Assembly (NCBI RefSeq): GCF_004010195.1
Contig: NW_025214593.1
Coordinates: 1-46,969, forward strand
Length of the DNA: 46,969 nucleotides
DNA from: Chiloscyllium plagiosum
Lineage: Eukaryota
Direction of reading: 5' to 3'
Shown: in pieces, positions 6,116 to 46,969 of the stretch
How positions within the stretch are numbered: the first letter of the stretch is position 1
Layout of the letters: the number at the start of each line of letters is the position of its first letter
Translations under genes and position numbers: made by a program
Notes under the pieces: generated by a model
Database searches by the model: none
What the model was told of the DNA's origin: nothing
What the model saw: the letters and a program-made list of their open reading frames with translations, nothing else

Positions 6116-6119
6116 CACC

Positions 6120-10244: not shown

Positions 10245-10485
10245 TCACTCTTCTTTCCTGATGAAGGACTTTTGCCCGAAACGTCGATTTTGCTGCTCGT
10301 CGGATGCTGCCTGAATTGCTGTGCTCTTCCAGCACCACTGATCCAGAATTCCCAATATTGATATCAAGCGAACAGGTCTGCAATTTGCAAGTTTAGGAGA
10401 AAGTGAAGACGGCAAATCGTCGAGAGTCGAGTCGAGAGTGTGGTACTGGAATAGCACAGCAGCTCAGGCATAATCCAAGGAGCTT
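10245..10485. mobile_element. Two opposed half-copies of the same Penelope-terminus family
   Basis: Plus arm cctgatgaaggacttttgcccgaaacgtcgatt...ccagcacc (10245-10345); minus arm ggagaaagtgaagacggcaaat...gcacagcagctcaggcataatccaaggagc (10395-10485). Confidence 0.65.
10254..10290 (+). ncRNA. Minimal type I hammerhead ribozyme motif (PLE-associated)
   Basis: CTGATGA (10258-10264), stem II ggac/gccc with one mismatch, GAAACGTC with palindromic ACGT helix III and GUC cleavage triplet. Confidence 0.6.
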
Positions 10486-21065: not shown

Positions 21066-22564
21066 CCACCTGAACGGATCTGTTACCAATGTTCTAGCGA
21101 AGAGGATAAATAAGGTGGTCAGTAGGACTTTAAATTTCTGAGTTGTGGGGAGGGGAAAGTGAAAGCGACAGGGAGTATGGAGGTAAATGGAAAGATAAGC
21201 AGCAGGATAGCATGTCTGCAGGTGGATTTAAGCTTGAGGCAGACTCGGAATGCAGCAAAAAGGAAGGATAACTTAAGACATCTTATGATTTCCAATATCT
21301 CTAATGATAAGAAAGTTAGCATTAAGGCACTTTACCTGAATGCTCGTAGCATTCGTAACATAGTAGATGAACGAACGGCACAGATCACCGTGAATGATTA
21401 TGATGTGGTAGGCATCACAGAAACGTGGTTGCAGGGGTTTCAGGACTGGCAGTTAATCATTCAAGTATTTACAACTTATCGAAAAGACAGGGAGGTGGGC
21501 ATGGGGGAGGGGTGGCCTTGTTAGTTAAGGACAAAATTAAATCTATAGCACTGAATGACATGAGGTCGGTTGATGTGAATTATGTGTGGGTGGAATTGAG
21601 GAACCACAATGTCAAAAAAAAACATAGTGGGAGTTATGTACAGACCTCCTAACAGTGGTCAGGACCAGGGATGCAACATGTACCGGGAAATAGACAAGGC
21701 ATGTCAGAAAGGCAAGGTCCTGGTGATCATGGGGAACTTCAATATGCAGGTCGACTGGGTAAATAATGTTGCCAGTGGATCCAAAGAAAGGAAATTCATG
21801 GAATGCTTCCAGGATGGCTTTTTGGAACAGATTGTCATGGAGCCCACAAGGCTGCAGGCTATTCTGGACTTCGTGCTATGTAATGAACCAGACTTTATAA
21901 ATGATCTTAAAGTAAGGGAACACTTAGGAAGCATCGATCATAATTTGGTAAAGTTCAGTCTGCAGTTTGAAAGAGAGAAGGCAAAATCGGATGTACTGGT
22001 GTTGAGGGCTTAGACAGCCATGGCTGACAAAGGAAGTCAGGAAGTCTATCAAAGAAAAAGAGAGAGCCTATGAAGTGGCCAAGAGCAATGGGAAATCAGA
22101 AGATTGGGAAGGCTGCAAAACCAAACAGAGGATAACAAAGAGAGAAATAAGAAAGGAGAGCATCAAATATGAAGGTAGGCTAGCCAGTAATATTAGAAAT
22201 GATAGTAAAATATTCCTTCAATACATAAGAAACAAACGACAGGCAAAAGTCGACATTGGGACACTTCAAACTGATGCTGGAAGGCTAGTGATGGGAGATA
22301 AGGAAATAGCTGGAGAACTTAATTGATATTTTGCGTCAGTCTCCACAGTGGATGGCATGAGTAATATCCCAACAATTAAAGGGAGTCAGGGGGCTGAGTT
22401 GAGTATGGTTGCCATTACAAAAGAGAAAGTGCTAGAAAAGCTAAAAGGTCTTAAAATTGATAAATCTCCTGGGTCCGATGGGCAACATCCTAGAGTTCTG
22501 AGGGAGTTGGCTGAGGAAATAGCGGAGGCGTTGGTTGAGATCTTTCAAAAGTCACTGGAGTCAG
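21060..22564 (+). mobile_element. CR1 LINE: ORF1 esterase C-terminus and ORF2 APE endonuclease, frameshifted, 3'-truncated at the satellite
   Basis: GLHLNGSVTNVLAKRINKVV (SGNH-like ORF1 end); LYLNARSIRN, YDVVGITETWL, VGVMYRPPN, VIMGNFN, ILDFVLCN, SIDHNLV, KSPGSDGQHPRVLREL. Stops abruptly at IFQKSLES, before the RT domain. Confidence 0.93.
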
Positions 22565-22567
22565 AGA

Positions 22568-25500
22568 TACGCAACACCAGGTTATAGATTGAAATCACAC
22601 AACATCAGGTTATAGTCCGAACTCACACAGCATCAGGTTATAGTCTGAAATCACATAACATCAGGTTAGAGTCCGAAATTACGCAACACCAGGTTATAGA
22701 TTGAAATCACACAACATCAGGTTATAGTCCGAACTCACACAGCATCAGGTTATAGTCTGAAATCACATAACATCAGGTTAGAGTCCGAAATTACGCAACA
22801 CCAGGTTATAGATTGAAATCACACAACATCAGGTTATAGTCCGAACTCACACAGCATCAGGTTATAGTCTGAAATCACATAACATCAGGTTAGAGTCCGA
22901 AATTACGCAACACCAGGTTATAGATTGAAATCACACAACATCAGGTTATAGTCCGAACTCACACAGCATCAGGTTATAGTCTGAAATCACATAACATCAG
23001 GTTAGAGTCCGAAATTACGCAACACCAGGTTATAGATTGAAATCACACAACATCAGGTTATAGTCCGAACTCACACAGCATCAGGTTATAGTCTGAAATC
23101 ACATAACATCAGGTTAGAGTCCGAAATTACGCAACACCAGGTTATAGATTGAAATCACACAACATCAGGTTATAGTCCGAACTCACACAGCATCAGGTTA
23201 TAGTCTGAAATCACATAACATCAGGTTAGAGTCCGAAATTACGCAACACCAGGTTATAGATTGAAATCACACAACATCAGGTTATAGTCCGAACTCACAC
23301 AGCATCAGGTTATAGTCTGAAATCACATAACATCAGGTTAGAGTCCGAAATTACGCAACACCAGGTTATAGATTGAAATCACACAACATCAGGTTATAGT
23401 CCGAACTCACACAGCATCAGGTTATAGTCTGAAATCACATAACATCAGGTTAGAGTCCGAAATTACGCAACACCAGGTTATAGATTGAAATCACACAACA
23501 TCAGGTTATAGTCCGAACTCACACAGCATCAGGTTATAGTCTGAAATCACATAACATCAGGTTAGAGTCCGAAATTACGCAACACCAGGTTATAGATTGA
23601 AATCACACAACATCAGGTTATAGTCCGAACTCACACAGCATCAGGTTATAGTCTGAAATCACATAACATCAGGTTAGAGTCCGAAATTACGCAACACCAG
23701 GTTATAGATTGAAATCACACAACATCAGGTTATAGTCCGAACTCACACAGCATCAGGTTATAGTCTGAAATCACATAACATCAGGTTAGAGTCCGAAATT
23801 ACGCAACACCAGGTTATAGATTGAAATCACACAACATCAGGTTATAGTCCGAACTCACACAGCATCAGGTTATAGTCTGAAATCACATAACATCAGGTTA
23901 GAGTCCGAAATTACGCAACACCAGGTTATAGATTGAAATCACACAACATCAGGTTATAGTCCGAACTCACACAGCATCAGGTTATAGTCTGAAATCACAT
24001 AACATCAGGTTAGAGTCCGAAATTACGCAACACCAGGTTATAGATTGAAATCACACAACATCAGGTTATAGTCCGAACTCACACAGCATCAGGTTATAGT
24101 CTGAAATCACATAACATCAGGTTAGAGTCCGAAATTACGCAACACCAGGTTATAGATTGAAATCACACAACATCAGGTTATAGTCCGAACTCACACAGCA
24201 TCAGGTTATAGTCTGAAATCACATAACATCAGGTTAGAGTCCGAAATTACGCAACACCAGGTTATAGATTGAAATCACACAACATCAGGTTATAGTCCGA
24301 ACTCACACAGCATCAGGTTATAGTCTGAAATCACATAACATCAGGTTAGAGTCCGAAATTACGCAACACCAGGTTATAGATTGAAATCACACAACATCAG
24401 GTTATAGTCCGAACTCACACAGCATCAGGTTATAGTCTGAAATCACATAACATCAGGTTAGAGTCCGAAATTACGCAACACCAGGTTATAGATTGAAATC
24501 ACACAACATCAGGTTATAGTCCGAACTCACACAGCATCAGGTTATAGTCTGAAATCACATAACATCAGGTTAGAGTCCGAAATTACGCAACACCAGGTTA
24601 TAGATTGAAATCACACAACATCAGGTTATAGTCCGAACTCACACAGCATCAGGTTATAGTCTGAAATCACATAACATCAGGTTAGAGTCCGAAATTACGC
24701 AACACCAGGTTATAGATTGAAATCACACAACATCAGGTTATAGTCCGAACTCACACAGCATCAGGTTATAGTCTGAAATCACATAACATCAGGTTAGAGT
24801 CCGAAATTACGCAACACCAGGTTATAGATTGAAATCACACAACATCAGGTTATAGTCCGAACTCACACAGCATCAGGTTATAGTCTGAAATCACATAACA
24901 TCAGGTTAGAGTCCGAAATTACGCAACACCAGGTTATAGATTGAAATCACACAACATCAGGTTATAGTCCGAACTCACACAGCATCAGGTTATAGTCTGA
25001 AATCACATAACATCAGGTTAGAGTCCGAAATTACGCAACACCAGGTTATAGATTGAAATCACACAACATCAGGTTATAGTCCGAACTCACACAGCATCAG
25101 GTTATAGTCTGAAATCACATAACATCAGGTTAGAGTCCGAAATTACGCAACACCAGGTTATAGATTGAAATCACACAACATCAGGTTATAGTCCGAACTC
25201 ACACAGCATCAGGTTATAGTCTGAAATCACATAACATCAGGTTAGAGTCCGAAATTACGCAACACCAGGTTATAGATTGAAATCACACAACATCAGGTTA
25301 TAGTCCGAACTCACACAGCATCAGGTTATAGTCTGAAATCACATAACATCAGGTTAGAGTCCGAAATTACGCAACACCAGGTTATAGATTGAAATCACAC
25401 AACATCAGGTTATAGTCCGAACTCACACAGCATCAGGTTATAGTCTGAAATCACATAACATCAGGTTAGAGTCCGAAATTACGCAACACCAGGTTATAGA

Positions 25501-28500
25501 TTGAAATCACACAACATCAGGTTATAGTCCGAACTCACACAGCATCAGGTTATAGTCTGAAATCACATAACATCAGGTTAGAGTCCGAAATTACGCAACA
25601 CCAGGTTATAGATTGAAATCACACAACATCAGGTTATAGTCCGAACTCACACAGCATCAGGTTATAGTCTGAAATCACATAACATCAGGTTAGAGTCCGA
25701 AATTACGCAACACCAGGTTATAGATTGAAATCACACAACATCAGGTTATAGTCCGAACTCACACAGCATCAGGTTATAGTCTGAAATCACATAACATCAG
25801 GTTAGAGTCCGAAATTACGCAACACCAGGTTATAGATTGAAATCACACAACATCAGGTTATAGTCCGAACTCACACAGCATCAGGTTATAGTCTGAAATC
25901 ACATAACATCAGGTTAGAGTCCGAAATTACGCAACACCAGGTTATAGATTGAAATCACACAACATCAGGTTATAGTCCGAACTCACACAGCATCAGGTTA
26001 TAGTCTGAAATCACATAACATCAGGTTAGAGTCCGAAATTACGCAACACCAGGTTATAGATTGAAATCACACAACATCAGGTTATAGTCCGAACTCACAC
26101 AGCATCAGGTTATAGTCTGAAATCACATAACATCAGGTTAGAGTCCGAAATTACGCAACACCAGGTTATAGATTGAAATCACACAACATCAGGTTATAGT
26201 CCGAACTCACACAGCATCAGGTTATAGTCTGAAATCACATAACATCAGGTTAGAGTCCGAAATTACGCAACACCAGGTTATAGATTGAAATCACACAACA
26301 TCAGGTTATAGTCCGAACTCACACAGCATCAGGTTATAGTCTGAAATCACATAACATCAGGTTAGAGTCCGAAATTACGCAACACCAGGTTATAGATTGA
26401 AATCACACAACATCAGGTTATAGTCCGAACTCACACAGCATCAGGTTATAGTCTGAAATCACATAACATCAGGTTAGAGTCCGAAATTACGCAACACCAG
26501 GTTATAGATTGAAATCACACAACATCAGGTTATAGTCCGAACTCACACAGCATCAGGTTATAGTCTGAAATCACATAACATCAGGTTAGAGTCCGAAATT
26601 ACGCAACACCAGGTTATAGATTGAAATCACACAACATCAGGTTATAGTCCGAACTCACACAGCATCAGGTTATAGTCTGAAATCACATAACATCAGGTTA
26701 GAGTCCGAAATTACGCAACACCAGGTTATAGATTGAAATCACACAACATCAGGTTATAGTCCGAACTCACACAGCATCAGGTTATAGTCTGAAATCACAT
26801 AACATCAGGTTAGAGTCCGAAATTACGCAACACCAGGTTATAGATTGAAATCACACAACATCAGGTTATAGTCCGAACTCACACAGCATCAGGTTATAGT
26901 CTGAAATCACATAACATCAGGTTAGAGTCCGAAATTACGCAACACCAGGTTATAGATTGAAATCACACAACATCAGGTTATAGTCCGAACTCACACAGCA
27001 TCAGGTTATAGTCTGAAATCACATAACATCAGGTTAGAGTCCGAAATTACGCAACACCAGGTTATAGATTGAAATCACACAACATCAGGTTATAGTCCGA
27101 ACTCACACAGCATCAGGTTATAGTCTGAAATCACATAACATCAGGTTAGAGTCCGAAATTACGCAACACCAGGTTATAGATTGAAATCACACAACATCAG
27201 GTTATAGTCCGAACTCACACAGCATCAGGTTATAGTCTGAAATCACATAACATCAGGTTAGAGTCCGAAATTACGCAACACCAGGTTATAGATTGAAATC
27301 ACACAACATCAGGTTATAGTCCGAACTCACACAGCATCAGGTTATAGTCTGAAATCACATAACATCAGGTTAGAGTCCGAAATTACGCAACACCAGGTTA
27401 TAGATTGAAATCACACAACATCAGGTTATAGTCCGAACTCACACAGCATCAGGTTATAGTCTGAAATCACATAACATCAGGTTAGAGTCCGAAATTACGC
27501 AACACCAGGTTATAGATTGAAATCACACAACATCAGGTTATAGTCCGAACTCACACAGCATCAGGTTATAGTCTGAAATCACATAACATCAGGTTAGAGT
27601 CCGAAATTACGCAACACCAGGTTATAGATTGAAATCACACAACATCAGGTTATAGTCCGAACTCACACAGCATCAGGTTATAGTCTGAAATCACATAACA
27701 TCAGGTTAGAGTCCGAAATTACGCAACACCAGGTTATAGATTGAAATCACACAACATCAGGTTATAGTCCGAACTCACACAGCATCAGGTTATAGTCTGA
27801 AATCACATAACATCAGGTTAGAGTCCGAAATTACGCAACACCAGGTTATAGATTGAAATCACACAACATCAGGTTATAGTCCGAACTCACACAGCATCAG
27901 GTTATAGTCTGAAATCACATAACATCAGGTTAGAGTCCGAAATTACGCAACACCAGGTTATAGATTGAAATCACACAACATCAGGTTATAGTCCGAACTC
28001 ACACAGCATCAGGTTATAGTCTGAAATCACATAACATCAGGTTAGAGTCCGAAATTACGCAACACCAGGTTATAGATTGAAATCACACAACATCAGGTTA
28101 TAGTCCGAACTCACACAGCATCAGGTTATAGTCTGAAATCACATAACATCAGGTTAGAGTCCGAAATTACGCAACACCAGGTTATAGATTGAAATCACAC
28201 AACATCAGGTTATAGTCCGAACTCACACAGCATCAGGTTATAGTCTGAAATCACATAACATCAGGTTAGAGTCCGAAATTACGCAACACCAGGTTATAGA
28301 TTGAAATCACACAACATCAGGTTATAGTCCGAACTCACACAGCATCAGGTTATAGTCTGAAATCACATAACATCAGGTTAGAGTCCGAAATTACGCAACA
28401 CCAGGTTATAGATTGAAATCACACAACATCAGGTTATAGTCCGAACTCACACAGCATCAGGTTATAGTCTGAAATCACATAACATCAGGTTAGAGTCCGA

Positions 28501-31500
28501 AATTACGCAACACCAGGTTATAGATTGAAATCACACAACATCAGGTTATAGTCCGAACTCACACAGCATCAGGTTATAGTCTGAAATCACATAACATCAG
28601 GTTAGAGTCCGAAATTACGCAACACCAGGTTATAGATTGAAATCACACAACATCAGGTTATAGTCCGAACTCACACAGCATCAGGTTATAGTCTGAAATC
28701 ACATAACATCAGGTTAGAGTCCGAAATTACGCAACACCAGGTTATAGATTGAAATCACACAACATCAGGTTATAGTCCGAACTCACACAGCATCAGGTTA
28801 TAGTCTGAAATCACATAACATCAGGTTAGAGTCCGAAATTACGCAACACCAGGTTATAGATTGAAATCACACAACATCAGGTTATAGTCCGAACTCACAC
28901 AGCATCAGGTTATAGTCTGAAATCACATAACATCAGGTTAGAGTCCGAAATTACGCAACACCAGGTTATAGATTGAAATCACACAACATCAGGTTATAGT
29001 CCGAACTCACACAGCATCAGGTTATAGTCTGAAATCACATAACATCAGGTTAGAGTCCGAAATTACGCAACACCAGGTTATAGATTGAAATCACACAACA
29101 TCAGGTTATAGTCCGAACTCACACAGCATCAGGTTATAGTCTGAAATCACATAACATCAGGTTAGAGTCCGAAATTACGCAACACCAGGTTATAGATTGA
29201 AATCACACAACATCAGGTTATAGTCCGAACTCACACAGCATCAGGTTATAGTCTGAAATCACATAACATCAGGTTAGAGTCCGAAATTACGCAACACCAG
29301 GTTATAGATTGAAATCACACAACATCAGGTTATAGTCCGAACTCACACAGCATCAGGTTATAGTCTGAAATCACATAACATCAGGTTAGAGTCCGAAATT
29401 ACGCAACACCAGGTTATAGATTGAAATCACACAACATCAGGTTATAGTCCGAACTCACACAGCATCAGGTTATAGTCTGAAATCACATAACATCAGGTTA
29501 GAGTCCGAAATTACGCAACACCAGGTTATAGATTGAAATCACACAACATCAGGTTATAGTCCGAACTCACACAGCATCAGGTTATAGTCTGAAATCACAT
29601 AACATCAGGTTAGAGTCCGAAATTACGCAACACCAGGTTATAGATTGAAATCACACAACATCAGGTTATAGTCCGAACTCACACAGCATCAGGTTATAGT
29701 CTGAAATCACATAACATCAGGTTAGAGTCCGAAATTACGCAACACCAGGTTATAGATTGAAATCACACAACATCAGGTTATAGTCCGAACTCACACAGCA
29801 TCAGGTTATAGTCTGAAATCACATAACATCAGGTTAGAGTCCGAAATTACGCAACACCAGGTTATAGATTGAAATCACACAACATCAGGTTATAGTCCGA
29901 ACTCACACAGCATCAGGTTATAGTCTGAAATCACATAACATCAGGTTAGAGTCCGAAATTACGCAACACCAGGTTATAGATTGAAATCACACAACATCAG
30001 GTTATAGTCCGAACTCACACAGCATCAGGTTATAGTCTGAAATCACATAACATCAGGTTAGAGTCCGAAATTACGCAACACCAGGTTATAGATTGAAATC
30101 ACACAACATCAGGTTATAGTCCGAACTCACACAGCATCAGGTTATAGTCTGAAATCACATAACATCAGGTTAGAGTCCGAAATTACGCAACACCAGGTTA
30201 TAGATTGAAATCACACAACATCAGGTTATAGTCCGAACTCACACAGCATCAGGTTATAGTCTGAAATCACATAACATCAGGTTAGAGTCCGAAATTACGC
30301 AACACCAGGTTATAGATTGAAATCACACAACATCAGGTTATAGTCCGAACTCACACAGCATCAGGTTATAGTCTGAAATCACATAACATCAGGTTAGAGT
30401 CCGAAATTACGCAACACCAGGTTATAGATTGAAATCACACAACATCAGGTTATAGTCCGAACTCACACAGCATCAGGTTATAGTCTGAAATCACATAACA
30501 TCAGGTTAGAGTCCGAAATTACGCAACACCAGGTTATAGATTGAAATCACACAACATCAGGTTATAGTCCGAACTCACACAGCATCAGGTTATAGTCTGA
30601 AATCACATAACATCAGGTTAGAGTCCGAAATTACGCAACACCAGGTTATAGATTGAAATCACACAACATCAGGTTATAGTCCGAACTCACACAGCATCAG
30701 GTTATAGTCTGAAATCACATAACATCAGGTTAGAGTCCGAAATTACGCAACACCAGGTTATAGATTGAAATCACACAACATCAGGTTATAGTCCGAACTC
30801 ACACAGCATCAGGTTATAGTCTGAAATCACATAACATCAGGTTAGAGTCCGAAATTACGCAACACCAGGTTATAGATTGAAATCACACAACATCAGGTTA
30901 TAGTCCGAACTCACACAGCATCAGGTTATAGTCTGAAATCACATAACATCAGGTTAGAGTCCGAAATTACGCAACACCAGGTTATAGATTGAAATCACAC
31001 AACATCAGGTTATAGTCCGAACTCACACAGCATCAGGTTATAGTCTGAAATCACATAACATCAGGTTAGAGTCCGAAATTACGCAACACCAGGTTATAGA
31101 TTGAAATCACACAACATCAGGTTATAGTCCGAACTCACACAGCATCAGGTTATAGTCTGAAATCACATAACATCAGGTTAGAGTCCGAAATTACGCAACA
31201 CCAGGTTATAGATTGAAATCACACAACATCAGGTTATAGTCCGAACTCACACAGCATCAGGTTATAGTCTGAAATCACATAACATCAGGTTAGAGTCCGA
31301 AATTACGCAACACCAGGTTATAGATTGAAATCACACAACATCAGGTTATAGTCCGAACTCACACAGCATCAGGTTATAGTCTGAAATCACATAACATCAG
31401 GTTAGAGTCCGAAATTACGCAACACCAGGTTATAGATTGAAATCACACAACATCAGGTTATAGTCCGAACTCACACAGCATCAGGTTATAGTCTGAAATC

Positions 31501-34500
31501 ACATAACATCAGGTTAGAGTCCGAAATTACGCAACACCAGGTTATAGATTGAAATCACACAACATCAGGTTATAGTCCGAACTCACACAGCATCAGGTTA
31601 TAGTCTGAAATCACATAACATCAGGTTAGAGTCCGAAATTACGCAACACCAGGTTATAGATTGAAATCACACAACATCAGGTTATAGTCCGAACTCACAC
31701 AGCATCAGGTTATAGTCTGAAATCACATAACATCAGGTTAGAGTCCGAAATTACGCAACACCAGGTTATAGATTGAAATCACACAACATCAGGTTATAGT
31801 CCGAACTCACACAGCATCAGGTTATAGTCTGAAATCACATAACATCAGGTTAGAGTCCGAAATTACGCAACACCAGGTTATAGATTGAAATCACACAACA
31901 TCAGGTTATAGTCCGAACTCACACAGCATCAGGTTATAGTCTGAAATCACATAACATCAGGTTAGAGTCCGAAATTACGCAACACCAGGTTATAGATTGA
32001 AATCACACAACATCAGGTTATAGTCCGAACTCACACAGCATCAGGTTATAGTCTGAAATCACATAACATCAGGTTAGAGTCCGAAATTACGCAACACCAG
32101 GTTATAGATTGAAATCACACAACATCAGGTTATAGTCCGAACTCACACAGCATCAGGTTATAGTCTGAAATCACATAACATCAGGTTAGAGTCCGAAATT
32201 ACGCAACACCAGGTTATAGATTGAAATCACACAACATCAGGTTATAGTCCGAACTCACACAGCATCAGGTTATAGTCTGAAATCACATAACATCAGGTTA
32301 GAGTCCGAAATTACGCAACACCAGGTTATAGATTGAAATCACACAACATCAGGTTATAGTCCGAACTCACACAGCATCAGGTTATAGTCTGAAATCACAT
32401 AACATCAGGTTAGAGTCCGAAATTACGCAACACCAGGTTATAGATTGAAATCACACAACATCAGGTTATAGTCCGAACTCACACAGCATCAGGTTATAGT
32501 CTGAAATCACATAACATCAGGTTAGAGTCCGAAATTACGCAACACCAGGTTATAGATTGAAATCACACAACATCAGGTTATAGTCCGAACTCACACAGCA
32601 TCAGGTTATAGTCTGAAATCACATAACATCAGGTTAGAGTCCGAAATTACGCAACACCAGGTTATAGATTGAAATCACACAACATCAGGTTATAGTCCGA
32701 ACTCACACAGCATCAGGTTATAGTCTGAAATCACATAACATCAGGTTAGAGTCCGAAATTACGCAACACCAGGTTATAGATTGAAATCACACAACATCAG
32801 GTTATAGTCCGAACTCACACAGCATCAGGTTATAGTCTGAAATCACATAACATCAGGTTAGAGTCCGAAATTACGCAACACCAGGTTATAGATTGAAATC
32901 ACACAACATCAGGTTATAGTCCGAACTCACACAGCATCAGGTTATAGTCTGAAATCACATAACATCAGGTTAGAGTCCGAAATTACGCAACACCAGGTTA
33001 TAGATTGAAATCACACAACATCAGGTTATAGTCCGAACTCACACAGCATCAGGTTATAGTCTGAAATCACATAACATCAGGTTAGAGTCCGAAATTACGC
33101 AACACCAGGTTATAGATTGAAATCACACAACATCAGGTTATAGTCCGAACTCACACAGCATCAGGTTATAGTCTGAAATCACATAACATCAGGTTAGAGT
33201 CCGAAATTACGCAACACCAGGTTATAGATTGAAATCACACAACATCAGGTTATAGTCCGAACTCACACAGCATCAGGTTATAGTCTGAAATCACATAACA
33301 TCAGGTTAGAGTCCGAAATTACGCAACACCAGGTTATAGATTGAAATCACACAACATCAGGTTATAGTCCGAACTCACACAGCATCAGGTTATAGTCTGA
33401 AATCACATAACATCAGGTTAGAGTCCGAAATTACGCAACACCAGGTTATAGATTGAAATCACACAACATCAGGTTATAGTCCGAACTCACACAGCATCAG
33501 GTTATAGTCTGAAATCACATAACATCAGGTTAGAGTCCGAAATTACGCAACACCAGGTTATAGATTGAAATCACACAACATCAGGTTATAGTCCGAACTC
33601 ACACAGCATCAGGTTATAGTCTGAAATCACATAACATCAGGTTAGAGTCCGAAATTACGCAACACCAGGTTATAGATTGAAATCACACAACATCAGGTTA
33701 TAGTCCGAACTCACACAGCATCAGGTTATAGTCTGAAATCACATAACATCAGGTTAGAGTCCGAAATTACGCAACACCAGGTTATAGATTGAAATCACAC
33801 AACATCAGGTTATAGTCCGAACTCACACAGCATCAGGTTATAGTCTGAAATCACATAACATCAGGTTAGAGTCCGAAATTACGCAACACCAGGTTATAGA
33901 TTGAAATCACACAACATCAGGTTATAGTCCGAACTCACACAGCATCAGGTTATAGTCTGAAATCACATAACATCAGGTTAGAGTCCGAAATTACGCAACA
34001 CCAGGTTATAGATTGAAATCACACAACATCAGGTTATAGTCCGAACTCACACAGCATCAGGTTATAGTCTGAAATCACATAACATCAGGTTAGAGTCCGA
34101 AATTACGCAACACCAGGTTATAGATTGAAATCACACAACATCAGGTTATAGTCCGAACTCACACAGCATCAGGTTATAGTCTGAAATCACATAACATCAG
34201 GTTAGAGTCCGAAATTACGCAACACCAGGTTATAGATTGAAATCACACAACATCAGGTTATAGTCCGAACTCACACAGCATCAGGTTATAGTCTGAAATC
34301 ACATAACATCAGGTTAGAGTCCGAAATTACGCAACACCAGGTTATAGATTGAAATCACACAACATCAGGTTATAGTCCGAACTCACACAGCATCAGGTTA
34401 TAGTCTGAAATCACATAACATCAGGTTAGAGTCCGAAATTACGCAACACCAGGTTATAGATTGAAATCACACAACATCAGGTTATAGTCCGAACTCACAC

Positions 34501-37500
34501 AGCATCAGGTTATAGTCTGAAATCACATAACATCAGGTTAGAGTCCGAAATTACGCAACACCAGGTTATAGATTGAAATCACACAACATCAGGTTATAGT
34601 CCGAACTCACACAGCATCAGGTTATAGTCTGAAATCACATAACATCAGGTTAGAGTCCGAAATTACGCAACACCAGGTTATAGATTGAAATCACACAACA
34701 TCAGGTTATAGTCCGAACTCACACAGCATCAGGTTATAGTCTGAAATCACATAACATCAGGTTAGAGTCCGAAATTACGCAACACCAGGTTATAGATTGA
34801 AATCACACAACATCAGGTTATAGTCCGAACTCACACAGCATCAGGTTATAGTCTGAAATCACATAACATCAGGTTAGAGTCCGAAATTACGCAACACCAG
34901 GTTATAGATTGAAATCACACAACATCAGGTTATAGTCCGAACTCACACAGCATCAGGTTATAGTCTGAAATCACATAACATCAGGTTAGAGTCCGAAATT
35001 ACGCAACACCAGGTTATAGATTGAAATCACACAACATCAGGTTATAGTCCGAACTCACACAGCATCAGGTTATAGTCTGAAATCACATAACATCAGGTTA
35101 GAGTCCGAAATTACGCAACACCAGGTTATAGATTGAAATCACACAACATCAGGTTATAGTCCGAACTCACACAGCATCAGGTTATAGTCTGAAATCACAT
35201 AACATCAGGTTAGAGTCCGAAATTACGCAACACCAGGTTATAGATTGAAATCACACAACATCAGGTTATAGTCCGAACTCACACAGCATCAGGTTATAGT
35301 CTGAAATCACATAACATCAGGTTAGAGTCCGAAATTACGCAACACCAGGTTATAGATTGAAATCACACAACATCAGGTTATAGTCCGAACTCACACAGCA
35401 TCAGGTTATAGTCTGAAATCACATAACATCAGGTTAGAGTCCGAAATTACGCAACACCAGGTTATAGATTGAAATCACACAACATCAGGTTATAGTCCGA
35501 ACTCACACAGCATCAGGTTATAGTCTGAAATCACATAACATCAGGTTAGAGTCCGAAATTACGCAACACCAGGTTATAGATTGAAATCACACAACATCAG
35601 GTTATAGTCCGAACTCACACAGCATCAGGTTATAGTCTGAAATCACATAACATCAGGTTAGAGTCCGAAATTACGCAACACCAGGTTATAGATTGAAATC
35701 ACACAACATCAGGTTATAGTCCGAACTCACACAGCATCAGGTTATAGTCTGAAATCACATAACATCAGGTTAGAGTCCGAAATTACGCAACACCAGGTTA
35801 TAGATTGAAATCACACAACATCAGGTTATAGTCCGAACTCACACAGCATCAGGTTATAGTCTGAAATCACATAACATCAGGTTAGAGTCCGAAATTACGC
35901 AACACCAGGTTATAGATTGAAATCACACAACATCAGGTTATAGTCCGAACTCACACAGCATCAGGTTATAGTCTGAAATCACATAACATCAGGTTAGAGT
36001 CCGAAATTACGCAACACCAGGTTATAGATTGAAATCACACAACATCAGGTTATAGTCCGAACTCACACAGCATCAGGTTATAGTCTGAAATCACATAACA
36101 TCAGGTTAGAGTCCGAAATTACGCAACACCAGGTTATAGATTGAAATCACACAACATCAGGTTATAGTCCGAACTCACACAGCATCAGGTTATAGTCTGA
36201 AATCACATAACATCAGGTTAGAGTCCGAAATTACGCAACACCAGGTTATAGATTGAAATCACACAACATCAGGTTATAGTCCGAACTCACACAGCATCAG
36301 GTTATAGTCTGAAATCACATAACATCAGGTTAGAGTCCGAAATTACGCAACACCAGGTTATAGATTGAAATCACACAACATCAGGTTATAGTCCGAACTC
36401 ACACAGCATCAGGTTATAGTCTGAAATCACATAACATCAGGTTAGAGTCCGAAATTACGCAACACCAGGTTATAGATTGAAATCACACAACATCAGGTTA
36501 TAGTCCGAACTCACACAGCATCAGGTTATAGTCTGAAATCACATAACATCAGGTTAGAGTCCGAAATTACGCAACACCAGGTTATAGATTGAAATCACAC
36601 AACATCAGGTTATAGTCCGAACTCACACAGCATCAGGTTATAGTCTGAAATCACATAACATCAGGTTAGAGTCCGAAATTACGCAACACCAGGTTATAGA
36701 TTGAAATCACACAACATCAGGTTATAGTCCGAACTCACACAGCATCAGGTTATAGTCTGAAATCACATAACATCAGGTTAGAGTCCGAAATTACGCAACA
36801 CCAGGTTATAGATTGAAATCACACAACATCAGGTTATAGTCCGAACTCACACAGCATCAGGTTATAGTCTGAAATCACATAACATCAGGTTAGAGTCCGA
36901 AATTACGCAACACCAGGTTATAGATTGAAATCACACAACATCAGGTTATAGTCCGAACTCACACAGCATCAGGTTATAGTCTGAAATCACATAACATCAG
37001 GTTAGAGTCCGAAATTACGCAACACCAGGTTATAGATTGAAATCACACAACATCAGGTTATAGTCCGAACTCACACAGCATCAGGTTATAGTCTGAAATC
37101 ACATAACATCAGGTTAGAGTCCGAAATTACGCAACACCAGGTTATAGATTGAAATCACACAACATCAGGTTATAGTCCGAACTCACACAGCATCAGGTTA
37201 TAGTCTGAAATCACATAACATCAGGTTAGAGTCCGAAATTACGCAACACCAGGTTATAGATTGAAATCACACAACATCAGGTTATAGTCCGAACTCACAC
37301 AGCATCAGGTTATAGTCTGAAATCACATAACATCAGGTTAGAGTCCGAAATTACGCAACACCAGGTTATAGATTGAAATCACACAACATCAGGTTATAGT
37401 CCGAACTCACACAGCATCAGGTTATAGTCTGAAATCACATAACATCAGGTTAGAGTCCGAAATTACGCAACACCAGGTTATAGATTGAAATCACACAACA

Positions 37501-40500
37501 TCAGGTTATAGTCCGAACTCACACAGCATCAGGTTATAGTCTGAAATCACATAACATCAGGTTAGAGTCCGAAATTACGCAACACCAGGTTATAGATTGA
37601 AATCACACAACATCAGGTTATAGTCCGAACTCACACAGCATCAGGTTATAGTCTGAAATCACATAACATCAGGTTAGAGTCCGAAATTACGCAACACCAG
37701 GTTATAGATTGAAATCACACAACATCAGGTTATAGTCCGAACTCACACAGCATCAGGTTATAGTCTGAAATCACATAACATCAGGTTAGAGTCCGAAATT
37801 ACGCAACACCAGGTTATAGATTGAAATCACACAACATCAGGTTATAGTCCGAACTCACACAGCATCAGGTTATAGTCTGAAATCACATAACATCAGGTTA
37901 GAGTCCGAAATTACGCAACACCAGGTTATAGATTGAAATCACACAACATCAGGTTATAGTCCGAACTCACACAGCATCAGGTTATAGTCTGAAATCACAT
38001 AACATCAGGTTAGAGTCCGAAATTACGCAACACCAGGTTATAGATTGAAATCACACAACATCAGGTTATAGTCCGAACTCACACAGCATCAGGTTATAGT
38101 CTGAAATCACATAACATCAGGTTAGAGTCCGAAATTACGCAACACCAGGTTATAGATTGAAATCACACAACATCAGGTTATAGTCCGAACTCACACAGCA
38201 TCAGGTTATAGTCTGAAATCACATAACATCAGGTTAGAGTCCGAAATTACGCAACACCAGGTTATAGATTGAAATCACACAACATCAGGTTATAGTCCGA
38301 ACTCACACAGCATCAGGTTATAGTCTGAAATCACATAACATCAGGTTAGAGTCCGAAATTACGCAACACCAGGTTATAGATTGAAATCACACAACATCAG
38401 GTTATAGTCCGAACTCACACAGCATCAGGTTATAGTCTGAAATCACATAACATCAGGTTAGAGTCCGAAATTACGCAACACCAGGTTATAGATTGAAATC
38501 ACACAACATCAGGTTATAGTCCGAACTCACACAGCATCAGGTTATAGTCTGAAATCACATAACATCAGGTTAGAGTCCGAAATTACGCAACACCAGGTTA
38601 TAGATTGAAATCACACAACATCAGGTTATAGTCCGAACTCACACAGCATCAGGTTATAGTCTGAAATCACATAACATCAGGTTAGAGTCCGAAATTACGC
38701 AACACCAGGTTATAGATTGAAATCACACAACATCAGGTTATAGTCCGAACTCACACAGCATCAGGTTATAGTCTGAAATCACATAACATCAGGTTAGAGT
38801 CCGAAATTACGCAACACCAGGTTATAGATTGAAATCACACAACATCAGGTTATAGTCCGAACTCACACAGCATCAGGTTATAGTCTGAAATCACATAACA
38901 TCAGGTTAGAGTCCGAAATTACGCAACACCAGGTTATAGATTGAAATCACACAACATCAGGTTATAGTCCGAACTCACACAGCATCAGGTTATAGTCTGA
39001 AATCACATAACATCAGGTTAGAGTCCGAAATTACGCAACACCAGGTTATAGATTGAAATCACACAACATCAGGTTATAGTCCGAACTCACACAGCATCAG
39101 GTTATAGTCTGAAATCACATAACATCAGGTTAGAGTCCGAAATTACGCAACACCAGGTTATAGATTGAAATCACACAACATCAGGTTATAGTCCGAACTC
39201 ACACAGCATCAGGTTATAGTCTGAAATCACATAACATCAGGTTAGAGTCCGAAATTACGCAACACCAGGTTATAGATTGAAATCACACAACATCAGGTTA
39301 TAGTCCGAACTCACACAGCATCAGGTTATAGTCTGAAATCACATAACATCAGGTTAGAGTCCGAAATTACGCAACACCAGGTTATAGATTGAAATCACAC
39401 AACATCAGGTTATAGTCCGAACTCACACAGCATCAGGTTATAGTCTGAAATCACATAACATCAGGTTAGAGTCCGAAATTACGCAACACCAGGTTATAGA
39501 TTGAAATCACACAACATCAGGTTATAGTCCGAACTCACACAGCATCAGGTTATAGTCTGAAATCACATAACATCAGGTTAGAGTCCGAAATTACGCAACA
39601 CCAGGTTATAGATTGAAATCACACAACATCAGGTTATAGTCCGAACTCACACAGCATCAGGTTATAGTCTGAAATCACATAACATCAGGTTAGAGTCCGA
39701 AATTACGCAACACCAGGTTATAGATTGAAATCACACAACATCAGGTTATAGTCCGAACTCACACAGCATCAGGTTATAGTCTGAAATCACATAACATCAG
39801 GTTAGAGTCCGAAATTACGCAACACCAGGTTATAGATTGAAATCACACAACATCAGGTTATAGTCCGAACTCACACAGCATCAGGTTATAGTCTGAAATC
39901 ACATAACATCAGGTTAGAGTCCGAAATTACGCAACACCAGGTTATAGATTGAAATCACACAACATCAGGTTATAGTCCGAACTCACACAGCATCAGGTTA
40001 TAGTCTGAAATCACATAACATCAGGTTAGAGTCCGAAATTACGCAACACCAGGTTATAGATTGAAATCACACAACATCAGGTTATAGTCCGAACTCACAC
40101 AGCATCAGGTTATAGTCTGAAATCACATAACATCAGGTTAGAGTCCGAAATTACGCAACACCAGGTTATAGATTGAAATCACACAACATCAGGTTATAGT
40201 CCGAACTCACACAGCATCAGGTTATAGTCTGAAATCACATAACATCAGGTTAGAGTCCGAAATTACGCAACACCAGGTTATAGATTGAAATCACACAACA
40301 TCAGGTTATAGTCCGAACTCACACAGCATCAGGTTATAGTCTGAAATCACATAACATCAGGTTAGAGTCCGAAATTACGCAACACCAGGTTATAGATTGA
40401 AATCACACAACATCAGGTTATAGTCCGAACTCACACAGCATCAGGTTATAGTCTGAAATCACATAACATCAGGTTAGAGTCCGAAATTACGCAACACCAG

Positions 40501-41546
40501 GTTATAGATTGAAATCACACAACATCAGGTTATAGTCCGAACTCACACAGCATCAGGTTATAGTCTGAAATCACATAACATCAGGTTAGAGTCCGAAATT
40601 ACGCAACACCAGGTTATAGATTGAAATCACACAACATCAGGTTATAGTCCGAACTCACACAGCATCAGGTTATAGTCTGAAATCACATAACATCAGGTTA
40701 GAGTCCGAAATTACGCAACACCAGGTTATAGATTGAAATCACACAACATCAGGTTATAGTCCGAACTCACACAGCATCAGGTTATAGTCTGAAATCACAT
40801 AACATCAGGTTAGAGTCCGAAATTACGCAACACCAGGTTATAGATTGAAATCACACAACATCAGGTTATAGTCCGAACTCACACAGCATCAGGTTATAGT
40901 CTGAAATCACATAACATCAGGTTAGAGTCCGAAATTACGCAACACCAGGTTATAGATTGAAATCACACAACATCAGGTTATAGTCCGAACTCACACAGCA
41001 TCAGGTTATAGTCTGAAATCACATAACATCAGGTTAGAGTCCGAAATTACGCAACACCAGGTTATAGATTGAAATCACACAACATCAGGTTATAGTCCGA
41101 ACTCACACAGCATCAGGTTATAGTCTGAAATCACATAACATCAGGTTAGAGTCCGAAATTACGCAACACCAGGTTATAGATTGAAATCACACAACATCAG
41201 GTTATAGTCCGAACTCACACAGCATCAGGTTATAGTCTGAAATCACATAACATCAGGTTAGAGTCCGAAATTACGCAACACCAGGTTATAGATTGAAATC
41301 ACACAACATCAGGTTATAGTCCGAACTCACACAGCATCAGGTTATAGTCTGAAATCACATAACATCAGGTTAGAGTCCGAAATTACGCAACACCAGGTTA
41401 TAGATTGAAATCACACAACATCAGGTTATAGTCCGAACTCACACAGCATCAGGTTATAGTCTGAAATCACATAACATCAGGTTAGAGTCCGAAATTACGC
41501 AACACCAGGTTATAGATTGAAATCACACAACATCAGGTTATAGTCC
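22568..41546. repeat. Satellite higher-order repeat: ~169 copies of a 112-bp unit (4 x 28-bp monomers)
   Basis: Unit gaaattacgcaacaccaggttatagatt / gaaatcacacaacatcaggttatagtcc / gaactcacacagcatcaggttatagtct / gaaatcacataacatcaggttagagtcc. The same monomer starts at 22591 and 41519 (169 x 112). No variants seen by eye. Confidence 0.97.
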
Positions 41547-43964
41547 GAAATCACACAACTCCAGGTTATAGACCAAAATCACACAGCATCTGGTTATAAT
41601 CCGAAATCACACAACACCAGGTTATACTCCGAAATCACACAACTCCAGGTTATAGTCGGAAATCACACAACGCCACGTTATAGTCCGAAATCACACAACA
41701 CCAGGCTGTAGTCCGAAAGCACACGACTCCAGGTTAGAATCAGAAATCATGCAACATCAGGTTATATACAAAATCACACAACACCAGGTTATAGTCCAAA
41801 ATCACACAACATCAGGTGATAGTCCGAACTCACACAACACCAGGTGATAGTCCGAAATCACACAAAATCAGGTTATAGTCCAAAATCACACAACACCAGG
41901 TGATAGTCCGAAATCACACAAAATCAGGTTATACTCCAAAATCACACAACACCAGCTTATAGTCCGATATCACACAACATCAGGTTATCGTCCGAAATCA
42001 CACAACTCCAGGTTATACTCCAAAATCACACAACACCAGCTTATAGTCCGAAATCACACAACACCAGGTTATAGTCCGAAATCACACAACACCAGGTTAT
42101 AGGCCGAAATCACAGAACACCAGGTTATAGTCCGAAATCAAGAACACCAGGTTATAGAGCGAAATTGCACAACATCAGGTTATAGTCCGAAATCACACAG
42201 CGTCACATTATAATCCGAAATCAGACAACACCATGTTATAGTCCGAAATCTTACATCTCCAGTTTATAGTCCGAAATCACATAATATCAGGTTATAGTCC
42301 GAAATCACAGAACACCAGGTTATAGTCCGAACTCGCACAACACCAGGTTATAAACCGAAATCACACAGCACCAGGTTATAGTCCAAAATCACACAACACC
42401 AGGTTTTGGTCCGAAATCACACAACACCAGGTTATAGTCCAAAATCACACAACATCAGGTTATAGTCCAACATCACACAACATCATGTTGTGGTCCGAAA
42501 TCTCACAACACCAGCTTATAGTCCGATATCACACAGCACCAGGTTATAGTCCGAAATCACAGAGCACCAGGTTATAGTCCGAAATCACATAATATCAGGT
42601 TATAGTCCCAAAACACACAACACAAGGTAATAGTCTGAAATCACAGAACACCAGGTTATAGAGCGAAATCACACAACACCTTGTTATAGTCTGAAATCTT
42701 ACATCTCCAGCTTATAGTCCGAAATCACATAATATCAGGTTATAGTCCAAAATCACACAACACCAGGTTATACTCCGAAATCACACAACGCCACGTTATG
42801 CACCGAATTCACACAACACCAGGCTGTAGTCCGAAAGCACACACCAGGTTATTATCCGAAATCACACAACATCAGGTTATAGTCTGAAATCACACATCAG
42901 GTTATAGTCTGAAATCACATAACTTCAGGTTAAAGTCTGAAATCATGCAACACCAGGTTATAGTCCGAAATCACACAACTCCAGGTTATAGTCCAAAATC
43001 ACACACATCAGGTGATTGTCCGAAATCACACAAAATCAGGTTATACTCCGAAAGCACATAACACCAGCTTATAGTCCGATATCACACANNNNNNNNNNNN
43101 NNNNNNNNNNNNNNNNNNNNNNNNNNNNNNNNNNNNNNNNNNNNNNNNNNNNNNNNNNNNNNNNNNNNNNNNNNNNNNNNNNNNNNNNNNNNNNNNNNNN
43201 NNNNNNNNNNNNNNNNNNNNNNNNNNNNNGAAATCACACAGCACCAGGTTATAGTCCGAAATCACACAACACCAGGTTATAGTCCGATATCACACAACAC
43301 CAGATTGTAGTCCGAAATCACGCAACACAAGATTATAGTCCAAAATCACACAAACCAGGTTATAGTCCAAAATCACACAGCACCAGGCAATAGTCTGAAA
43401 TAACACATCAGGTTATTCTCCGAAATCACACAATACCAGGTTATAGTCCGATATCACACAACACCAGGTTGTGGACTGAAATCACACAACATCAGGTTAT
43501 AGTCCGAAATTACACAACACCAGGTTATAGTCCGATATCACACAACACCAGGTTGTGGACTGAAATCACACAACATCAGGTTATAGTCCGAAATCACACA
43601 ACACCAGGTTATAGTCCGAAATCACACAACTCCAGGTTATAATGTGAAATCACACAACATCCGGTTATAGTCTAAAATCACACAACACCAGGTTATAGTC
43701 CAAAATCATACAACTCGAGGTTATAATCTGAAATCACACAACACCAGGTTATAGTCCGAAATCACACAACTCCAGGTTATAATGTGTAATCACACAACAT
43801 CCGGTTATAGTCCAAAATCACACATCACCAGGTTATAGTCCGAAATCACACAACTCCAGGTTATAGTCTGAAATCACACAACTCCAGGTTATAATGTGAA
43901 ATCACACAACACCAGTTATATTCCGAAATCACACAACATCATGTTATAGCCCGAAATCACACAA
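41547..43964. repeat. Diverged monomeric 28-bp satellite (consensus gaaatcacacaacaccaggttatagtcc)
   Basis: About 80 sequenced monomers with scattered substitutions and occasional 1-3 nt deletions; contains N gap 43089-43229. Confidence 0.97.
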
Positions 43965-43967
43965 AAA

Positions 43968-45158
43968 AGCCGGGCAGTTTGCTACGAAAAATGATCTGTT
44001 TGAGGTTTGGCGCTTGTTTAAAGGCAAGCAGTGGAGGTGTGGGGAAGGTCTTGGTGAGGTGCTCATCCTCATTGATAATGTGTTGCTGGTCACGCAGAAC
44101 ATGGCGTAGTTTTTCAGCTCCTGGGAAATACTGAACAACGTTGTACCCTGACGGTTGTACCCTGAGGGTTGTACCCTGTCGGTTGCAGCACGGGCCTGTC
44201 TCCTGAGGAGGTCATTGCGGTTCCTTGCTGTGGCACGTCAGAACTGGTGGTCGATGAGTTGAGCATCGTACCCTGTTCTTATGAGGGCATCCCTGATCAC
44301 TTACCGGTGCCTGTCACATTCCTCCTCATCTGAGCAGATCTGGTGTATGCGTAGGGCTTGTCCATAGGGAATGGCTGTTTTAAAATGTTTTGGGTGGAAG
44401 CTGGAGAAGTGTAGCATTGTGAGGTTGTCTGTGGGTTTGTGGGAGAGTGTGGTGCTGAGGTGTCCATCCTTAATGGAGATGCATGTGTCTAAGAATGAGA
44501 CAGACAGTCGAGAGTAGTCCATGGTGAGTTTGATGGTGGGATGAAACTTGTTGATGTCACTGTGTAGTTTTATCAGTGACTCCTCGCCATGGGTCCAGAG
44601 GAAGAAAATGTACCTGGTGTACAATGTTGGTTGGAGATCCTGCATAGAGAAGAAATCTTGTTCGAACCTGTGCATAAAAATGTTGGCATATTGGGGTGCA
44701 AATTTGGTCCCCATGGCTGTTCCGTGTGTCTGGATGAAGAATTCATTGTCAAAGGTGAAGACATTATGATCGAGGATAAAGCGGATGAGTTGTAGGACGG
44801 TGTTTGGAGACTGGCAGTTGTTGGTGTTGAGTACTGAGGCTGTTGCCACGATGCCGTCATTGTGGGGGATACTGGTGTAGAGTGCGGAAACGTCCATTGT
44901 GAGGAGGAATGTTCCCGGTTCGACTGGTCCGTGGGTGCTGAGATTCTGTAAGAAATCCGTAGTGTCACAACAAAAGTTGGAGATCCCCTGTACAATAGGT
45001 TTCAAGATGCCTTCCACATAGCCGAAGAGATTCTCACATAGGGTCCCATTGCCCAACACGATGGGACGTCCTGGTGTATTGGCTTTGTGTATCTTTGGAA
45101 GGCAGTAGAAGACCTCCTACACGAGAAGTACTTCTTTATCCTGAGCGTAGGATGAGAG
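43968..45158 (-). mobile_element. Penelope-like element reverse transcriptase, inactive, 5'-truncated, inverted segment
   Basis: FYCLPKIHKANTPGRPIV, TMDVSALYTSIPH, QTHGTAMGTKFAPQYANIFM, VSFLD, HPKHFKTAIPYGQALR, LAFKQAPNLKQIIFRSKLP. Catalytic YIDD reduced to RYIFF; in-frame stops downstream of 44301. Confidence 0.95.
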
Positions 45159-45226
45159 TGTACAAAGTTAAAAATCACACTACACCAGGTTATAGTCCAA
45201 GAGGTTTAATTGGAAGCACAGTAGCT
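45159..45226 (-). mobile_element. Inverted Penelope pseudo-LTR 3' tail
   Basis: Reverse complement (agctactgtgcttccaattaaacctcttggactataacctggtgtagtgtgatttttaactttgtaca) matches 46258-46325. Confidence 0.92.
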
Positions 45227-45311
45227 CCATACAACCCTGTCACGGTAGGCGCTGCAAGACGTGTCAGATTGTGGACATAGATACCACTATTACACGTGGG
45301 GACACCTCCCA
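45227..45311 (+). mobile_element. Penelope linker (Zn-knuckle-like) preceding GIY-YIG endonuclease; remainder in N gap
   Basis: IQPCHGRRCKTCQIVDIDTTITRGDTS, the PC-x4-CxxC motif characteristic of the PLE RT-EN linker. Confidence 0.85.
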
Positions 45312-45834
45312 NNNNNNNNNNNNNNNNNNNNNNNNNNNNNNNNNNNNNNNNNNNNNNNNNNNNNNNNNNNNNNNNNNNNNNNNNNNNNNNNNNNNNNNNN
45401 NNNNNNNNNNNNNNNNNNNNNNNNNNNNNNNNNNNNNNNNNNNNNNNNNNNNNNNNNNNNNNNNNNNNNNNNNNNNNNNNNNNNNNNNNNNNNNNNNNNN
45501 NNNNNNNNNNNNNNNNNNNNNNNNNNNNNNNNNNNNNNNNNNNNNNNNNNNNNNNNNNNNNNNNNNNNNNNNNNNNNNNNNNNNNNNNNNNNNNNNNNNN
45601 NNNNNNNNNNNNNNNNNNNNNNNNNNNNNNNNNNNNNNNNNNNNNNNNNNNNNNNNNNNNNNNNNNNNNNNNNNNNNNNNNNNNNNNNNNNNNNNNNNNN
45701 NNNNNNNNNNNNNNNNNNNNNNNNNNNNNNNNNNNNNNNNNNNNNNNNNNNNNNNNNNNNNNNNNNNNNNNNNNNNNNNNNNNNNNNNNNNNNNNNNNNN
45801 NNNNNNNNNNNNNNNNNNNNNNNNNNNNNNNNNN

Positions 45835-46324
45835 GGTGAATTTGTACTTGCAGAGTTACATTGCACTTTGCTCAAAAACTGCATACGTTCATGTAGAGCT
45901 CTGAGCTCAAAAACTGCATGAATGTATGTAAAACTCTGTATTTCACTTTTTAGATTGGAATCAATCTAAACATCAGGTCATAGACAGAGAACACAGGGGC
46001 CTAACACCTTCAACATATTGTCTAGCTATCACCATTGTTAACAGCTAACCCGAGAATGCAACTTTAAAAAAAGGGTTTTGTGATTTACACATGAAAGAAG
46101 TTAAACTATCACTGTATTCTAACAGATGAAAGGGTTAACAGACAATCAATTTTTCAATGTATAATTTCAGTTACATCACACTGTAAATTTTTGCTATAAA
46201 TTCTGTGTTACGATCGAGCCCTCCACAAACTGCCTGATGAAGGAGCGTCGCTCCGAAAGCTAGTGTGCTTCCAATTAAACCTGTTGGACTATAACCTGGT
46301 GTTGTGTGATTTTTAACTTTGTAC
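45835..46324 (+). mobile_element. Penelope pseudo-LTR / 3' region, copy 1
   Basis: Aligns with 46440-46887; ends with the hammerhead motif and ggactataacctggtgttgtgtgatttttaactttgtac. Confidence 0.9.
46231..46266 (+). ncRNA. Minimal hammerhead ribozyme motif in pLTR copy 1
   Basis: CTGATGA (46234-46240), stem II ggagc/gctcc, GAA-AGCT-A with palindromic helix III, then gtg. Stem I is poorly paired in this copy. Confidence 0.7.
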
Positions 46325-46887
46325 ACTCACATACACACACATATACACACTCTCTCACACTCTCAACCCCCAACCCAATCAGTCAGACAGATACACACAC
46401 ACACACACACACATACATAATGTATATATACATTTGTGGGGTGAATTTGTACTTGCAGAGTTACATTGTACTTTGCTTAAAAACTGCATGAATCCCTGTA
46501 AGACTCTGTTTTCTCACTTTTCAGATTAGAATCAGTATAAACATTATGGCACAGACAGGGAACACAGGGGGCTAACACCTTCAACATATTATCTAGCTAA
46601 CATTAATTGTTACAGTTAACCTGAGACTGTAACTTTTAAAAACAAGTTTTGTGATTTACACATGAAAGAAGTGAAACTATCATGGTATTTGAACAGAAAA
46701 AAAGACTCAACAAACAATCAAGGTATTTTTCAATGTATAATTTCAGTTACATCACACTTTTGCTATAAATTCTGTGTCTTACAATTGTTTCCTCCACATC
46801 CTCCTGATGAAGGAGCGACGCTCCGAAAGCTAGTGCTTCCAATTAAATCTGTTGGACTATAACCTGGTGTTGTGTGATTTTTAACTT
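46325..46887 (+). mobile_element. Penelope pseudo-LTR / 3' region, copy 2 (with upstream CA-rich tract)
   Basis: Direct, diverged repeat of copy 1 from ggtgaatttgtacttgcagagttacattg (46440) to gtgtgatttttaactt. Confidence 0.9.
46801..46836 (+). ncRNA. Minimal hammerhead ribozyme motif in pLTR copy 2
   Basis: ctc-CTGATGA-a-ggagc-gac-gctcc-GAAAGCTA-gtg. Confidence 0.7.
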
Positions 46888-46969
46888 CAATTATCCAGAC
46901 ATAGACACAGATACTTGTAGTAGGCAACGTGCAGCAATTGCTCCGAGATTGCATGCAGGAGAGTTTCTT

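Follow-up and report, generated by a model that had tools for sequence, protein, structure and literature searches.

A 28-bp satellite from the pseudo-LTR of a Penelope-like element in Chiloscyllium plagiosum, adjoined by a possibly later insertion of the same family

Sources of satellite DNA already in print include Penelope elements (PMC12692304), and the origin of satellites from transposable elements (TEs) is a route already known. Non-LTR retrozymes are tandem units from the pseudo-long terminal repeats (pLTRs) of Penelope-like elements (PLEs), each with a type I hammerhead, and the same preprint mentions that PLEs were found early on to match satellites (bioRxiv 10.64898/2026.07.22.740005). 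PLE insertions may contain inverted pLTRs, tails and partial tandems (PMC3846280), the layout of PLEs with a C-terminal endonuclease has been described (PMC8557442), and minimal hammerheads occur in pLTRs (PMC4209133). Here we analyze a tandem array of a 28-bp monomer and an adjoining PLE copy in the shark Chiloscyllium plagiosum. The window, 46,969 nucleotides in length, is the entire unplaced scaffold C101188 (NW_025214593.1) of an assembly of 3.56 Gb in 101,977 contigs. Its array is an example of the TE-derived route: judged from its sequence, the satellite almost certainly derives from this PLE family. On balance, we favor a later insertion of the neighboring PLE copy at an older array.

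The monomer (28-mer) was found to match the reverse complement of 46286-46313 and of 46854-46881, in the two direct pLTR copies, at 27 of 28 positions each, and the inverted pLTR end at 45171-45198 at 26 of 28. This reproduced the three matches described in an earlier reading made from the letters of the window (the sequence-only reading). Outside the array, just these three sites matched the 28-mer at ≤7 mismatches in a search of the window, and the chance of a 27/28 match in a random 3-kb neighborhood is ~7e-12. Cores of the hammerhead motif were located from 46234 and from 46804 onward (regular-expression match), stem II is predicted to fold, and the 28-mer starts 25-27 nt after the GAAA that closes the core, in rough agreement with the ~20 nt given before. 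A search of 43900-46969 against Rfam returned no hammerhead and two chance hits only, and no hammerhead core motif was found in the array by motif search. The 28-mer pairs with the element tail in a predicted stem whose fold is no better than shuffles, and the same was true of the folding of monomer trimers and the pLTR (z -1.39 to 0.29). The last array nucleotide is 43964 and the element begins at 43966/43968, confirming that only a few nucleotides separate the array from Penelope reverse transcriptase (RT) sequence.

In the assembly, 35,596 exact occurrences of the pLTR 27-mer were counted, and 101,046 when up to two mismatches were allowed; the family is estimated at ~114,000 copies, one per ~31 kb (Poisson estimate), and a further separate count gave 25,230 copies. 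The diverged array, on the other hand, is distributed over seven unplaced contigs (C11275, C21766, C26721, C50888, C60022, C63331 and C101188; ~10.7 kb non-redundant), and all 124 matches of a junction-spanning 24-mer (≤1 mismatch) fall on them. In runs of three organisms, A, B and C, pLTR depth amounted to 5-15 million, while the array reached 2,900-6,700 in the two runs of A and 100-840 in those of B and C; these depths are sums over contigs and do not give copy number. Since the 28-mer segment occupies a fixed pLTR context in two subfamilies with >100,000 dispersed copies, and since the depths of pLTR and array contrast in this way, the direction from element to satellite is favored, and the earlier claim that the satellite came from this PLE family holds, the 28-bp register being present on the seven contigs only. 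Capture of an older satellite by the element would agree with monomers that are more diverged than typical pLTR copies. However, that fixed context, the predicted pairing of the 28-mer with the element tail (in the fold that shuffles equal), the rarity of the array and its enrichment in one of the three organisms, and the independent origin of other registers of the same stretch make capture extremely unlikely in our view.

On the seven contigs 376 monomers were counted, some of them twice through contig overlap. Of the six other array contigs, five consist of array over their whole length; C60022 contains a sub-domain of greater uniformity plus an insertion within the array, which we take to be like a short interspersed nuclear element (SINE). 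No seed pLTR was found at an array end on any of the seven. The 124 junction matches all lie on the + strand, which is probably the assembler's contig orientation.

The length of ~21 kb that had been given for the array in the window does not stand, because 18.9 of its 21.4 kb consist of 169 identical 112-mers (Table 1). Monomers beyond this block differ from the consensus by 8-12%. Contig C26721 is identical to the window over 398 nt from 41408, contains just 142 nt of the 112-mer run and has other sequence before it. It holds a single 112-bp unit flanked by an exact 30-nt direct repeat, and such a repeat round a unit would give rise to a cycle when the assembly graph is built from short words. 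The block 22568-41495 is therefore probably a gap-filling artefact and not real length, as judged from the contig sequences.

The neighboring element consists of two halves, one inverted, running from 45226 down to 43966, and one direct, starting at 45225. Relatives are colinear, with RT, CX4CxxC linker, GIY-YIG-type domain, 3' untranslated part and pLTR. The RT piece of the window contains a 271-aa frame with a weak RVT_1 match (E 1.8e-4, below the Pfam cut-off) and is 86-95% identical to 24 dispersed copies; a YIDD motif is present in the RT of the relatives, and no match to the RT was obtained among PDB sequences. By eye, and following the description in PMC8557442, the GIY-YIG motifs, two cysteines between them and a CX2-5CxxC linker were recognized in three relatives (L046, L050 and L059). 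Pfam returned no family in two of two cases, and the window itself retains only the linker of this part. The element is thus best described as a putative C-terminal-endonuclease PLE that appears Neptune-like, the clade name being taken from the linker motif alone. Its pLTRs show a partial tandem plus inverted layout with minimal hammerhead cores, for which cleavage is predicted only. The possibility that pLTR 2 is an older copy was rejected, as it differs by 4.3% from its own relatives.

The breakpoints of the two halves lie ~10 nt apart in colinear relatives, and in all four public runs contigs join 43966 to 45225/45227 on opposite strands. Twin priming of L1 elements yields two-part inverted insertions of this kind. 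The two halves are accordingly complementary parts of one RNA, probably inserted by a twin-priming-like process. With the inversion ends only ~10 nt apart, 43966 is a junction formed at insertion, and the sequence to its left was therefore target DNA or filler. The element-sense start of the inverted pLTR end presumably lies at about the hammerhead cut site predicted from the hammerhead consensus; the inverted half stops (45219-45226) within ~5 nt of this site, as if the template RNA began there. Within the RT piece, a 14-bp unit is repeated 3.3 times (44140-44185); it is common to a sibling at C1:150.66 Mb and absent in 23 other copies, and marks a small sub-lineage. The ends of the insertion abut similar CA-rich 7-mers (43958-43965 and 46327-46333, 6/7 alike), possibly reflecting a target preference or a weak target-site duplication.

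Short tandem duplications of the same stretch recur in the family. When the whole assembly was searched for repetition of the monomer's core 12-mer within 46 bp, 89 matches were obtained. Of these, 19 fell in the 28-bp contigs and the remaining 70 at 49 other loci; 43 of the 49 loci were opened, of which one lay outside pLTR context and one belonged to another family. Duplication periods ranged from 15 to 46, with periods of 36-37 and 18 recurring and ending on short internal pLTR repeats. The 28-bp register was not found as a chromosomal dimer at ≤1 mismatch. Four in-place arrays had at least seven copies, all in a 36-37-bp register with a TTAA-type repeat as boundary: 36 bp x 14.4 on C48, right after the hammerhead and running into a 3.7-kb gap; 36 bp x 12 on C25544, after the pLTR and running off the contig; 36 bp x 11 on C2; and 37 bp x 7.1 on C33, where a fold-back insertion holds the array in its inverted arm, found in a separate search. 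As nine units of the C48 array are identical, it is partly suspect as assembly too. It is C48, C25544 and C33, and not the window, that are sites with source and product adjoining. The arrays at C48:5750311-5750829 (L095 4312-4830) and C25544 (L096 771-1215) have a derived variant unit in common and different left flanks, and are possibly a second pLTR-derived satellite.

For a control 12-mer taken from the hammerhead, 59 matches were obtained, spread over 51 loci (6 of the 51 opened), with runs of up to 15 x 8. Duplication in the pLTR is thus generic, and a special hotspot at the pLTR end was rejected, in a comparison not normalized per single copy of each 12-mer. The units at C2, C48 and C11 share derived bases, as growth at the DNA level predicts. 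In C33 the monomers are star-like (12 changes in 259 nt, 1 of them shared), and the direct arm differs by 16% from the reference copy; this locus (C33:27118162-27118426, L143 863-1127) is the strongest candidate for a run that arose during insertion or shortly thereafter. A small-RNA template of 28 nt, the size of a PIWI-interacting RNA, was also considered for the monomer and dropped, given the ambiguity of the register and the poor fit of the other periods.

It is highly unlikely that the RT made the first multi-copy run at this locus by realigning on its own RNA in a telomerase-like manner. PLE and telomerase RTs are described as sister groups (PMC8557442), the array reads as antisense cDNA continuous with the RT piece, and the register and boundary shared by the four in-place arrays as well as the star-like monomers of C33 would be in agreement with such an activity. 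However, the periods vary, the hammerhead control yields as many loci, the units of C2, C48 and C11 share derived bases, the 28-bp register is never a chromosomal dimer, and microhomology at the DNA level explains recurring registers equally well. The broader proposal, that the RT of this PLE family occasionally realigns on a short, internally repeated part of its RNA just downstream of the hammerhead and adds head-to-tail copies at an insertion site, with runs of 36-37 bp at four loci and of 28 bp in the window seeding satellites, is likewise improbable; if true, it would bear on the origin of telomerase-type activity from retroelement enzymes.

According to the sequence-only reading, the array in the window was seeded locally by the adjoining element, with source and product side by side. 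This part was not supported over a later insertion: no pLTR context is present at the array edge, the junction coincides with the inversion point, and divergence in the monomers is roughly double that of every piece of the neighboring element. Left of 43966, the array shows a monomer broken mid-unit, the derived G junction and no pLTR sequence. Because arrays born in place (C48, C25544 and C33) keep an adjoining pLTR and the window array has none, local seeding is not favored. With one family copy per ~31 kb, it is to be expected that a further copy should land at an array already present, and C60022 shows that an insertion inside the array exists.

The monomers are 9.3-9.9% diverged, as compared to 4.3% for genome-wide pLTR copies, the latter value covering copies within two mismatches only; for both sets, the metric was 0 versus up to 2 mismatches in the same 27-mer. 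C26721 was omitted from the substitution and age figures, as it overlaps the window, and monomers with indels or >7-9 mismatches were not counted. The monomers nearest the junction are 7.4-8.7% diverged, the four pieces of the neighbor 3.6-6.1% from the majority of their relatives (3.6% from the column majority for the pLTR 1 piece), and the closest sibling locus shows a pairwise difference of 4.9%. Transitions alone are about twice as frequent as in dispersed copies (340 in 327 monomers versus 39 in 78). These values suggest that the array is either older than its neighbor or faster-mutating, with the former being favored.

Several observations weigh against a later insertion at an older array. 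The array is rich in transversions (transitions:transversions 250:309 versus 39:25; Fisher p 0.017, with monomers non-independent), and the age contrast may thus reflect rate and not time. The median array position is just 7.0% diverged, and both divergences of the element lean low, since the relatives are best hits and the 4.3% is limited to ≤2 mismatches. A simple insertion predicts array on both sides, whereas the far flank is another PLE piece plus a fragment of a long interspersed nuclear element (LINE), so that one has to postulate a target deletion, an insertion at the array edge or a misjoin over the 523-N gap. Moreover, in position and orientation the array corresponds to an inverted pLTR arm. 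For the preceding growth by duplication, a crude count over 31 dimers gave 9 shared derived bases, fewer than the 19 differences, which is compatible with duplication at insertion as well as later. The sibling at C1:150.66 Mb was considered as an empty or ancestral site and rejected; it is colinear and has no array at the matching point.

Owing to the position and orientation of the array and the non-array far flank, a local origin retains some probability, although we consider it rather doubtful. The array would then come from the inverted pLTR arm or the junction filler of this or of the pLTR 2 insertion, at the 5' junction, with its divergence produced by error-prone amplification; the transversion excess hints at an unusual mutational process, and C33 holds its array of 37 bp in just such an arm. 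However, neither assembled end of the array has pLTR sequence, expansion of the arm followed by deletion would need to stop within ~10 nt of an independent inversion point, the monomers at the junction exceed the neighboring pieces in divergence, and a doubling is seen in transitions alone. It is also conceivable, yet unlikely, that the junction is a chimeric short-read join and the adjacency meaningless. The scaffold is interrupted by two gaps and probably contains a loop, repeats lie on both sides, and insertions of this type are said to trouble short-read assemblies (PMC8557442). No contig bridging the junction was present among the matches listed (contigs of four public runs, 43850-45311), which is not evidence against the junction. 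Against a chimera, the junction is situated inside an N-free piece of 2.1 kb (43230-45311), its two sides share only 1-2 A, too little for a graph overlap, and it falls at the biologically expected inversion point.

Under the favored later insertion, the following course of events can be proposed. A 28-bp head-to-tail duplication inside one pLTR would have seeded the satellite, the homology being observed and the direction and the event deduced from it. Short duplications of this kind would occur at a rate of roughly one per few thousand copies, chiefly through realignment on short repeats within the pLTR. A few would then grow by DNA-level slippage and unequal exchange, a mechanism suggested by the observed series of dimers, short arrays and arrays of 7-14 copies. 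The 28-bp array probably grew to at least 10 kb, with a T-to-C change at the junction creating a CpG, and was subsequently hit by insertions, the SINE-like one in C60022 and the PLE copy at the array edge in the window. This younger copy of the parent family would have entered as a two-part inverted insertion, with the array as the left end of the target; 18.9 kb of the array length would be the assembly loop, and the seed pLTR is absent from the assembled pieces.

The endonuclease of the left-flank LINE was identified with Pfam (Exo_endo_phos_2, E 5.5e-7, 21600-22010), and the LINE is presumably of the CR1/L2 type. It is cut at the array with 5 nt of exact microhomology according to the junction strings; at 22555-22572, the LINE and a rare variant of the monomer also show an imperfect microhomology that is longer than the exact 5 nt. 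This left junction may thus reflect a genuine rearrangement, regardless of whether the 112-mer run exists. The C7 sequence resembled by the right flank reads, by eye, as a LINE endonuclease region. The two flanks as halves of one LINE were rejected, as the left flank already contains the region that the right flank resembles. Further to the left, a 500-bp head-to-tail duplication (14685-15683, 30 differences/500) is either old or two haplotypes joined, and fold-back insertions at 9490-10483 and 18842-19075 carry hammerhead-like cores that belong to other families, with motifs at 9616, 10258 and 18948. A sequencing-run search gave no RNA sequencing run containing the sequence among the matches listed.

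Table 1. Positions of the array, the Penelope-like element and the flanking sequences in the window
Feature	Position	Strand	Description
Decayed LINE fragment, left flank	21126..22567	+	apurinic-type endonuclease region and downstream
169 identical 112-bp (4 x 28) units	22568..41495	+	0 substitutions across 169 units
Diverged 28-bp satellite, 53 monomers	41496..43088	+	mean 10.1% from consensus
Assembly gap, 141 N	43089..43229	.	
Diverged 28-bp satellite, 26.4 copies, stops mid-monomer	43230..43964	+	antisense to element RNA
Inverted, 5'-truncated RT piece	43966..45157	-	ends just before RT-endonuclease linker
Inverted pLTR end, 28-mer at 45171-45198	45158..45226	-	26/28
Start of endonuclease half, CX4CxxC linker	45225..45311	+	begins ~10 nt past inverted RT end in colinear relatives
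Assembly gap, 523 N	45312..45834	.	relatives have ~620 nt here
3' untranslated part and pLTR 1	45835..46326	+	core from 46234, 28-mer 46286-46313
3' part and pLTR 2, second subfamily	46327..46887	+	core from 46804, 28-mer 46854-46881
Right flank, non-array	46884..46969	+	76% like one locus (C7)

Our findings make one ~40-base stretch of a retroelement traceable within one genome, from single copies through dimers and runs of 3-14 copies to a satellite of at least 10 kb. This series would allow satellite birth rates and registers to be counted once long reads are used. It also provides a warning, as a perfectly homogeneous 19-kb 'higher-order repeat' of this assembly is probably not DNA. A literature search found nothing on this PLE family or the 28-bp monomer, most subscription journals lying outside the search; on twin priming with Penelope, it returned no PLE-insertion study by title, and the monomer motifs were absent from two supplementary files of a shark-genome paper.

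With regard to the described systems, the neighboring element resembles canonical endonuclease-positive PLEs (PMC3846280, PMC8557442) in its order of RT and GIY-YIG-type domain, its partial tandem and its inverted 5' part, and it resembles the PLEs of PMC4209133 in the hammerhead core of its pLTR. It differs from canonical PLE insertions in that its halves are complementary parts of one RNA with ~10 nt missing. Like non-LTR retrozymes, the array consists of tandem repeats from a PLE pLTR that would have arisen by local amplification; unlike them, its 28-mer is without a hammerhead and starts downstream of one. Assignment to the non-LTR retrozymes was therefore rejected, since those have a hammerhead in each unit (bioRxiv 10.64898/2026.07.22.740005). 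Two features of transposon-derived satellites, a TE-homologous monomer (27/28) and a long head-to-tail array, were observed here. In line with the satellites covered in PMC12692304, the monomer is internal to a dispersed retroelement, with many short seeds and few long arrays; in contrast to them, it is very short, comes from the end of a pLTR, and belongs to a series from dimer to satellite in a single genome.

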